Below, piece by piece: positions 45,204-46,212 of a stretch of DNA of 56,409 nt. The DNA comes from Minisyncoccota bacterium (GTDB taxonomy: Bacteria > Patescibacteriota > Minisyncoccia > Phycocordibacterales > UBA9973). The stretch is taken from assembly GCA_041657885.1 (NCBI GenBank), contig JBBABB010000003.1:1-56409 (forward strand). Reading direction: 5' to 3'. Position 1 is the first letter of the stretch, and the number at the start of each line of letters is the position of its first letter. The notes beneath the pieces were generated by a model. The model made no database searches. It had not been told where the DNA came from and saw only the letters and a list, made by a program, of their open reading frames with translations. The position numbers and the translations under genes were made by a program.

Positions 45204-45338
45204 CCCCCACACCTACTTTACCATCGTTCTGTTTTTTCAAAACAACATTAACATTATTTTAATATTCTAATTAATAATATTATTTTTAATAATACAATCA
45301 ATACAGAACAAAAAACAATGGCAAAGTAGGTGTGGGGG
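45204..45338 (-). repeat. 135-nt hairpin IVS in 23S helix 45 (CCCCCACACCTA family, copy 1)
   Basis: cccccacacctactttaccatcgttctg...cagaacaaaaaacaatggcaaagtaggtgtggggg replaces the helix-45 tip, between GAATACTAAGAGTAAAC and TAAAAAACACGGCAG. It is about 98 percent identical to 46076-46212. Confidence 0.85.
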
Positions 45339-45725
45339 TTTACTCTTAGTATTCGGAGTTTGATAGAATTCGCGAGATTACTCCCTGTCGAAACCTTCCA
45401 GTGCTCTACCCCTAAGAGGAACACACGACGCTAGCCCTAAAGCTATTTCGGAGAGAACCAGCTATTACCAGGTTCGATTAGTTTTTCACTCCTTACCACA
45501 AGTCATCCGAGACTATTGCACGGGTCACCGGTTCGGACCTCCATCTGCCTTTCGACAAACTTCATCCTGCTCATGGCAAGCTCACCTGGCTTCGGGTCTT
45601 ATCTAGACTACATTTATTTCGCGCTATTAACACTCGGTTTCCCTAAGGCTCCACTGTTCTAACAGCTTAGCCTGCAGCATAGATAAACTCGTTGGCTCAT
45701 TCTTCAATAGGCACGCCGTGACGGA

Positions 45726-45771
45726 CAGAACAAAATTTTCGAAAAAAATTCCTTTCAAAAATTTTGTTCTG
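45726..45771 (-). other. Extended helix 25 hairpin (small IVS-like expansion)
   Basis: CAGAACAAAATTTT cgaaaaaaattcctttca AAAATTTTGTTCTG lies at the helix-25 position. It shares the CAGAACAAAA string with the 135-nt IVS family. Confidence 0.6.
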
Positions 45772-46075
45772 CCCGCTCCGACTCCTTGTAAGTATATGGT
45801 TTCAGGTCTATTTCACTCCCCTTATCGGGGTTCTTTTCACCTTTCCCTCACGGTACTAGTTCACTATCGATCTAAAAAAGTATTTAGCCTTACCAGTTAG
45901 TTCTGGTGGATTCGCTCAAGCTATTCGTGTCTTGAGTTACTCAAGAATGACAATCAAGAAGATGTGAAATTTTCAACCACCGGGCTATCACCGTCTATGG
46001 CTCTTCTTTCCAGAAGATTAATCTAACAACACATTTTGTAACTTCTCTAGATAAATCTACATTGTCATCTTACAA

Positions 46076-46212
46076 CCCCCCCACACCTACTTTACCATCG
46101 TTCTGTTTTTTCAAAACAACATCAACATTATTTTAATATTCTAATTAATAATATTATTTTTGATAATACAATCAATGCAGAACAAAAAACAATGGCAAAG
46201 TAGGTGTGGGGG
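46076..46212 (-). repeat. 137-nt hairpin IVS in 23S domain I (CCCCCACACCTA family, copy 2)
   Basis: It has the same sequence as 45204-45338 apart from 3 substitutions. It is inserted right after AGTAGCGGCGAGCGAAAAGGAAAGAGCCCAAA. Confidence 0.85.

Follow-up and report, generated by a model that had tools for sequence, protein, structure and literature searches.

Near-identical hairpins in a patescibacterial 23S rRNA gene as probable MITE-like copies of a compact mobile element family

How does a single 23S ribosomal RNA (rRNA) gene come to contain the same hairpin twice, in two unrelated parts of the molecule? The question is raised by a contig of a Minisyncoccota bacterium (Patescibacteriota; JBBABB010000003.1, assembly GCA_041657885.1), of which positions 1 to 56,409 were analysed; this whole stretch is called the window below. 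A sequence-only reading of the DNA had described two 135-nt hairpins, 98% identical and 3 substitutions apart, in different 23S helices, and had proposed a mobile or gene-converted module able to colonise the tips of rRNA helices. The window makes up the whole contig, and a protein more than 90% identical to one encoded in it is named Candidatus Paceibacterota. According to our analysis the hairpins are probably miniature inverted-repeat transposable element (MITE)-like copies, devoid of an open reading frame (ORF), of a compact family of mobile DNA elements of the Candidate Phyla Radiation (CPR)/Patescibacteria, tolerated at variable sites of the 23S gene. We regard them as derivatives of a compact mobile element because of target duplications, filled and empty sites, and longer versions with the same ends that encode a GIY-YIG domain. 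The following features carry the argument:

45204..45338, minus strand: copy A, 135-nt hairpin element at the H38 base, within the internal loop on the 3' strand of that arm, E. coli ~nt 929-933 (sequence, fold, alignment)
45200..45203, no strand assigned: left 4-bp duplication of copy A (TTTA on the plus strand, TAAA in the rRNA sense)
45339..45342, no strand assigned: right 4-bp duplication of copy A (TTTA on the plus strand)
46078..46212, minus strand: copy B, 135-nt hairpin element in domain I, in place of an H15-type hairpin (between E. coli 270 and 284; junctions recur in loci L084 and L104)

Alignment, Rfam and BLAST confirmed the description of the pair. Both copies comprise 135 nt, differ by three transitions, share a common stretch of 138 nt at 98% identity and occupy non-homologous places of the 23S rRNA (Rfam; BLAST and alignment to the E. 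coli 23S). The inverted-repeat arms of the window copies are 33 nt long. In the rRNA sense (minus strand) the fold of each copy is a terminal stem of 27 bp that bears two inner hairpins, and the folding energies (dG) are -62.9 (z -11.5) and -62.4 kcal/mol (z -12.5). The sequence CCCCCACACCTA is found six times in the window, forming three inverted pairs (0.10 expected; 0/100 shuffles). No match to the hairpins above the gathering score and no group I catalytic core match on either 135-nt copy were detected with Rfam.

The position of copy A had to be revised. It had been assigned to helix 45, but the H45 region is colinear with the E. coli 23S and free of a large insertion (E. coli 972-1399 against window 45158-44725), and Rfam, BLAST and alignment place the copy at the H38 base instead. 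There it lies on the 3' side of an internal loop that separates the basal 7-bp helix of the H38 arm from the helix following it, and this loop is visible in the folded empty version. The limits of copy B are 46078-46212 and not 46076-46212, its place shortly after GCGAGCGAA being correct; it replaces the hairpin at positions 274-295 of the Rfam large subunit (LSU) model, directly following the conserved CCAAA and directly preceding the conserved GGUUGU. This site we take to be H15 of the standard numbering. The idea of a module colonising rRNA helix tips is valid in part only: copy A occupies an internal loop instead of a helix tip, and the element is not rRNA-specific and is mostly intergenic.

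Loci fetched from other contigs bear handles beginning with L, and ten of them contain 23S sequence. One of these, L084, was recognised by Rfam as bacterial LSU rRNA, is 92-98% identical to the 23S gene of the window and has the site of copy A empty: its sequence there is GAGTTAAAAACACGG, compared with GAG-TAAA-[135 nt]-TAAA-AAACACGG in the window (rRNA sense). The window is longer at this place by exactly 135 + 4 nt, and L084 contains a single T(T/A)AAA. We thus observed a filled and an empty version of one site in two closely similar genes. The E. coli ~930 site is also empty in L104, L058 and L035.

The site of copy B shows a different history. L084 possesses an H15 copy with the same junctions (93% identical to that of the window), as does L104 (76% identical). 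H63 of L084 holds a further copy (83% identical), its place in the window being taken by an unrelated hairpin of 138 nt; H63 is filled in L031 and L035, too, and carries no family copy in the window or L058. L058/L105 combine a short native H15 and an empty ~930 site with a copy 70 nt upstream of the 23S start that is flanked by a TAAC duplication; the source name of the L058/L105 GIY-YIG protein is Ca. Nomurabacteria. In L021/L044 and L123 copies adjoin the 23S 5' end. The relatives thus do not show unrelated sequences at both sites: one site holds the element known from the window, and the other is cleanly empty. Copy B is older than the split from L084; copy A is younger than this split or was lost from L084.

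The 4-bp duplication of copy A is a property of the family. With the element boundary set at [C/T]CCCC…GGGG[G/A], a perfect 4-bp direct repeat was present at 71 of 115 non-redundant copies and a repeat with at most one mismatch at 84, while eight shifted registers gave direct repeats at only 0-7 of the 115. The reconstructed target is Y-W-W-R, with Y at position 1 in 96%, R at position 4 in 96% and A/T between. Separately, many independent-looking insertions are located in TTAT^CCACAG with a TTAT duplication (L006, L034, L059/L096, L045, L109, L058:1405-1719, L091:3521-3834, L138, L151). This target is a perfect DnaA-box consensus (TTATCCACA) and departs from the general Y-W-W-R rule.

The inverted repeat consists of 12-nt conserved ends and 8 further complementary positions, about 20 bp altogether. 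At arm positions 12-19 all four bases occur across the family, yet 89-97% of the pairs are Watson-Crick complementary (shuffled controls 40-59%) and only 1-4% are G.T pairs. The 8 variable but complementary subterminal positions suggest either recognition of structure or correction of one arm by means of its partner.

Copies outside rRNA were found in other CPR genomes and in metagenomes. Family members have the ends [C/T]CCCCACACCTA…TAGGTGTGGGG[G/A] and a length of 118-146 nt. A scan of a genome collection with one extended arm as query yielded three loci, two contigs of a Saccharibacteria metagenome-assembled genome (MAG) and one of a Minisyncoccia MAG. These copies are full length, 72-77% identical to the window copies and all situated between protein-coding genes; Rfam gave no rRNA match at the three loci. 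Scanning metagenomes for both 11-nt ends separated by a 95-125-nt gap yielded at least 120 loci, many of them from groundwater including 0.1-µm filter fractions. Small copies lacking an ORF are thus dispersed over at least 120 metagenome loci and 2 MAGs, and 3 copies are present within the 56-kb window of the source genome. Only 2 of 116 copies lie inside an ORF (crude gene call), and among those fetched from other contigs only 5 are within a 23S gene, most being intergenic. Interiors are not conserved across the family, yet each copy folds strongly (mean -50 kcal/mol). In summary, terminal inverted repeats, a duplication of fixed length, small dispersed ORF-less copies, and filled as well as empty sites, i.e. 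four characteristics of MITEs, were found.

Two to five copies are present on several contigs, some of them in tandem or apparently nested (L004 3575-3843; L063 1626-1893; L065; L110 1399-1678; L091 with at least 5 copies in 13.4 kb).

The third inverted CCCCCACACCTA pair of the window is the hairpin at 48377-48419, which had been noticed before as an intergenic hairpin with the same stem base and indeed has the same 12-nt ends as the long copies:

48377..48419, no strand assigned: 43-nt internally deleted family member with ends CCCCCACACCTATATTTT / AAATATAGGTGTGGGGG, matching the ends of the GIY-YIG-bearing L138 and L145
48373..48376, no strand assigned: left 4-bp duplication (CAAG) of the short element (sequence)
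48420..48423, no strand assigned: right 4-bp duplication (CAAG) of the short element (sequence)
48361..48435, minus strand: terminator-like hairpin downstream of rplL, interrupted by the short element (nested fold)

Since its ends match those of full-length elements of the L138/L145 type, we consider the 43-nt hairpin an internal-deletion derivative. Removal of the short element and one CAAG from the rplL hairpin leaves AAAAAAACACCCCUUGCGGGGGUGUUUUUU, and for this reconstructed empty site the fold (-17.6 kcal/mol) is a stem of 13 bp with a U run behind it; the short element sits in the loop. A 40-nt counterpart is present in L092.

During the search for distant terminus pairs we came upon versions of about 300-310 nt with the same ends and duplications (L058 1405-1719, L120 9208-9497 and the decayed L091 3521-3834). 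Each of the three has one ORF of about 85 aa with a complete GIY-YIG domain (PF01541, E 4.7e-19 and 4e-17). A protein search resulted in 643 clusters at E ≤ 1e-10; nearly all proteins among the matches listed have 84 aa, and the source names of most named clusters listed are Patescibacteria lineages (Nomurabacteria, Pacebacteria, Paceibacterota). Five further homologues were picked blind to their flanks. All five were bounded by C[C/T/A]CCCACACCT…AGGTGTGGG[G/A/T]G, with the 4-bp repeats TTGA, TTAT, CCTA, AAAA and ATAA. The link between the termini and the GIY-YIG gene was accordingly observed in 8/8 elements examined, in which this gene is the only ORF between the family termini, with a duplication. 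The gene fills the element tightly, running from some 25-45 nt within the 5' end up to the 3' end, which its stop codon directly adjoins. The nearest solved structures of the 84-aa protein are the UPF0213 proteins 1zg2 and 1ywl, followed by Slx1; minimal bacterial Slx1-like nucleases have been described with a presumed repair function (Dunin-Horkawicz et al., PMC1564403). A more distant GIY-YIG homologue (48% identity) is encoded at L027 1941-2138, ~480 nt from a family hairpin at 1343-1464.

Taken together, the following scenario is probable. The full-length members are elements of about 310 bp with a single gene, encoding an 84-aa stand-alone GIY-YIG nuclease of the Slx1/UPF0213 type, and insertion duplicates 4 bp of a Y-W-W-R target. 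The GIY-YIG protein may supply the cleavage activity for mobility. Hairpins of 118-146 nt and mini-hairpins of 40-68 nt probably arose by internal deletions; they keep the ends and fold back on themselves. The H15 copy has probably long been resident in the 23S gene and is common to relatives; a second, 98% identical copy probably entered the internal loop at the H38 base recently, giving rise to the TAAA duplication, and a mini copy the loop of the rplL terminator. Survival of insertions in the 23S gene seems to be confined to variable sites, among them H15, H63, the base of H38 and the 5' leader. RNase III may cut the 27-bp stem in the pre-rRNA, as in classical intervening sequences (IVSs), or the stem may be kept as an expansion segment. 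Going further, CCCCACACC elements might represent a previously unrecognised class of prokaryotic transposons whose only protein, the 84-aa Slx1-like GIY-YIG nuclease, reads the hairpin or cruciform of the ends and not their sequence, and whose hairpin derivatives are a general source of short IVS-like insertions and expansion hairpins in CPR rRNA genes; to this tentative proposal we give somewhat less than an even chance.

Several observations weigh against the mobile-family explanation. Copy B has no visible duplication, nor have the H15 and H63 copies of the relatives, all of which are flush with conserved rRNA. The 56-kb window contains neither a GIY-YIG gene nor any other transposase, and mobilisation in trans in this genome is therefore an assumption. 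To our knowledge GIY-YIG enzymes are hydrolytic nucleases with no strand-transfer activity, and another enzyme could be responsible. Furthermore, the pattern used for scanning already demanded the exact 11-nt termini, and their conservation is to that extent built in, most metagenome contigs with family copies bear no taxonomic label, and the junctions of copy A are known from one assembly only.

Some of these points would be accounted for if the family were moved by a conventional transposase encoded elsewhere, the GIY-YIG gene being a passenger or selfish add-on. A family with 4-bp duplications and C-rich ends would fit this explanation, a palindromic Y-W-W-R target combined with a duplication of fixed length is typical of DDE-type integration, GIY-YIG nucleases are not known for catalysing transposition, and the window is devoid of a GIY-YIG gene. 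However, the GIY-YIG gene is the sole and tightly packed ORF in all eight elements. Its product is highly conserved, most proteins being 74-83% identical to the query (L120 protein 58%) with the GIY, YIG, Arg, His-Asn and Glu catalytic positions invariant or nearly so in the alignment. In addition, inspection of nearby ORFs in 126 loci (730 kb) revealed no transposase-like ORF beside unpaired termini or distant terminus pairs. For these reasons we consider a conventional transposase less likely, although it is the alternative that survives best. The same absence of a transposase-like gene near unpaired or distant termini in the 126 loci led us to reject a conventional autonomous insertion sequence.

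Mobility might also be incidental if the hairpin were primarily a functional RNA or ribosome module, such as a protein-binding or processing signal selected in rRNA and leader. Orientation and strand folds point in this direction. When compared with copy A, 9 of 10 rRNA-associated copies score higher in the rRNA sense (L035 is a tie), and among 11 copies folded on both strands, 10 gain 2.5-23 kcal/mol in stability on the sense strand as compared with the antisense strand (the exception, L119, belongs to a different subfamily); both results rest on about five or six independent events. Several copies are located just 5' of the 23S start, and the three differences between copies A and B affect unpaired or terminal positions of the fold. 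Against this, most members are intergenic and have no preferred orientation with respect to adjacent genes, the interiors lack conservation among family members, and close relatives do without the element at each site. The arm complementarity is moreover of the Watson-Crick type and not G.U-tolerant, which points to the DNA level. A primarily functional module is thus improbable. The unbiased orientation to neighbouring genes likewise argues against a role as promoter, terminator or untranslated region.

Still less probable is that a locus-specific rRNA hairpin was duplicated inside the gene through gene conversion or ectopic recombination, with no transposition involved. The copies are 98% identical and only 874 nt apart in one gene, AAA directly precedes both of them, and copy B as well as the H63 copies of relatives sit flush with the helix without duplications. 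Against this explanation stand the 4-bp duplication of copy A and its clean empty site in L084, and homologous intergenic copies outside rRNA are found in other genomes with duplications of their own. One non-rRNA copy, L102, has a CTTG duplication and shares 87-90% identity with the window copies, more than several rRNA copies do; these similarities indicate that rRNA and non-rRNA copies form one exchanging population. As sole explanation, duplication within the gene is largely refuted. From the alternative put forward by the sequence-only reading, mobility is retained in view of the copies elsewhere, the duplications and L084, and gene conversion is not needed, though it could help to keep the copies alike.

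An assembly artefact, i.e. a collapsed or chimeric repeat, can practically be dismissed: apart from the single assembly behind the junctions of copy A, it would be favoured by an independent assembly of the same organism (L002, ENA ERZ27247322 k141_195748; 100% identical over 46359-55643) that breaks off within the 5' part of the 23S gene, 147 nt short of copy B, and by the lack of a record of an ORF spanning the copy A junctions when this was looked up, but the copies differ at 3 positions, both are embedded in colinear rRNA sequence, a mis-join does not create the family-typical 4-bp duplication of copy A, and the copy B junctions recur in the independent contigs L084 and L104. Where an rRNA gene or repeat interrupts assembly, contig ends like that of L002 are typical.

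With the mobile-family explanation retained, some narrower candidates were rejected as well. A REP/REPIN or IS200/IS605-derived element is at variance with the 4-bp duplication, and no RAYT/TnpA (HUH) gene was present in the ORFs examined near unpaired termini, the gene associated with the family being of GIY-YIG type. A GIY-YIG homing endonuclease gene does not agree with an 84-aa protein consisting of the catalytic domain only, nor with 4-bp duplications at many Y-W-W-R sites instead of one long target. As for a phage vector, the two-arm pattern had no match in viral contigs, where one distant GIY-YIG relative (39% identity) was found.

The H25 expansion at 45726-45771 had been connected with the hairpins through a shared string. 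It does contain CAGAACAAAA, which has 6 matches in the window (0.38 expected), four of them due to the two element copies and the H25 palindrome and two at unrelated sites elsewhere. The proposed relationship was left unproven, given a single shared 10-mer that also occurs at these two sites and the absence of the family termini.

The host gene itself carries further insertions:

40924..46480, minus strand: host 23S rRNA gene (Rfam; BLAST against E. coli 23S), with four group I-type insertions, the H25 expansion at 45726-45771 and an unrelated 138-nt H63 hairpin at 44268-44405

Rfam detected a bacterial 23S rRNA gene on the minus strand at 43513-46466 with a 5S gene downstream, and BLAST against the E. 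coli 23S extended it to about 40924. The BLAST comparison located insertions near E. coli 270-284, 921-972, 1704-1770, ~1952, 2263, 2500 and 2630-2657. Four of them (window 40924-44070; near E. coli 1952, 2263, 2500 and 2630-2657) are of group I type and share a repeated core motif, GGACTATATCTTCATCC; Rfam group I intron matches are located at 43860-44069 and 41742-41960 of the window. The insertion near E. coli 2263 comprises 1274 nt and includes a 205-aa ORF (42243-42860). A palindromic motif, CATCACATNNNATGTGATG, is contained in the unrelated 138-nt H63 hairpin of the window as well as in a different H15 insertion of ~150 nt in L021/L044 (L021 6082-6100, L044 1146-1164). Hairpins with CATCACATNNNATGTGATG may be a second hairpin family that is also present in non-homologous 23S helices.

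The DNA of the window genome, with ~33% GC, holds several families of GC-rich intergenic hairpins. One 73-nt GC-rich hairpin is located directly 5' of the 23S start (46503-46575); the same place is taken by a family copy in L021/L044 and by other hairpins or repeats in L104 and L119. A GC-rich hairpin repeat pair (CCCCTCCCCTTACCAAGGG…GGGGAGGG) is found on both sides of rplJ (49069-49100 and 49703-49734). A second repeat, unrelated to the hairpins, is a GC-rich structured element of ~125 nt with two copies, 78% identical, at 3132-3260 and 48440-48565. The latter lies between rplL and the short hairpin, and the former is inserted in frame within trmD (ORF 2716-3531, minus strand), dividing the Pfam tRNA_m1G_MT match into two parts. 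This repeat has no Rfam match, and TrmD carrying the insert is present in other assemblies, too. Searching the short hairpin region and the second repeat at a permissive Rfam E-value gave only sub-threshold matches, mostly to microRNA-precursor models.

These results show an IVS-like 23S hairpin that bears the hallmarks of transposition: it has inverted repeats and a 4-bp duplication, a near relative has the site empty, and sister copies exist elsewhere than in rRNA. They offer a concrete origin for part of the unexplained short ORF-less and GIY-YIG-encoding non-intron insertions in CPR rRNA genes (PMC11270868). A mobile element of ~310 bp with a minimal GIY-YIG nuclease as its only gene would rely on a type of enzyme that is not among the recognised transposase classes. 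A single 23S gene is usual in CPR genomes (PMC11270868), and the surviving insertions therefore mark places where the bacterial ribosome tolerates about 135 extra nucleotides. On the practical side, repeats of this kind interrupt the assembly of rRNA genes and have consequences for probes and phylogenies based on rRNA.

Among known systems, bacterial MITEs (Correia/NEMIS of Neisseria; ERIC, RUP, YPAL) resemble the hairpins in a size of about 100-170 bp, the lack of an ORF, inverted repeats, a duplication, dispersed and mostly intergenic copies, and long hairpins in the RNA. Correia hairpins in Neisseria transcripts are cut by RNase III (PMC10969869, PMC2229807). The family described here differs in its 4-bp Y-W-W-R duplication in place of TA, its CPR hosts and its copies inside the 23S gene (rRNA is not mentioned in a recent review of MITEs), and its only protein-coding relative has a GIY-YIG nuclease and no recognised transposase. 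Rickettsia palindromic elements are likewise palindromic, measure about 100-150 bp and are tolerated in functional genes of reduced genomes (PMC10969869). They are mostly inserted in frame in protein-coding genes. Members of the present family, by contrast, are nearly always found in intergenic DNA or rRNA; the family shows clear duplications and includes a protein-coding relative. Closest in habit among eukaryotes is Pokey (piggyBac superfamily) with its mPok MITEs in Daphnia, a DNA transposon with MITE derivatives in large-subunit rRNA genes and elsewhere (PMC3849761, PMC4912750); there, multicopy rDNA buffers the insertions, one specific rDNA target is used and the transposase is of the piggyBac type.

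The 23S IVSs of Salmonella, Yersinia, Leptospira, Campylobacter and Coxiella are extra hairpins with complementary ends, too, sporadic among relatives. The window hairpins share this definition, each being an extra complementary-ended hairpin inside a 23S gene with relatives that do without it, and their stem has the length of an RNase III substrate. We know of no dispersed non-rRNA copies, duplications or pairs of empty and filled sites of the present kind in classical IVSs. The sites differ as well, being H15, the H38 base and H63 (window copies at E. coli 270-284 and ~930) instead of the classical H9, H25 and H45 (PMC4990558). Transposition remnants have been suspected in 23S IVSs since 1990, and their origin has been called unclear (PMC4990558).

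The short uncharacterised insertions and those with a GIY-YIG gene that are on record for CPR rRNA genes (Tsurumaki et al. 2024, citing Brown et al. 2015) represent the same phenomenon in the same organisms. Tsurumaki et al. reported short ORF-less non-intron insertions and 30 GIY-YIG ORFs, left uncharacterised, the short ones being guessed to be of IVS type, and CPR rRNA insertions were reported to be removed from transcripts; the text of that paper does not mention inverted repeats or hairpins and refers to transposition only for LAGLIDADG elements (PMC11270868). In an incomplete coverage of the literature we found no description of the family or of an inverted-repeat, duplication-making GIY-YIG element. 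Stand-alone Slx1-like GIY-YIG proteins (UPF0213; PDB 1zg2, 1ywl) correspond to the 84-aa protein in being a minimal GIY-YIG domain, but they are viewed as vertically inherited repair proteins (PMC1564403), whereas the gene found here is bounded by inverted repeats and duplications. As MITEs or IVSs the hairpins fit known kinds, and the GIY-YIG element associated with them may be a new kind of transposon.

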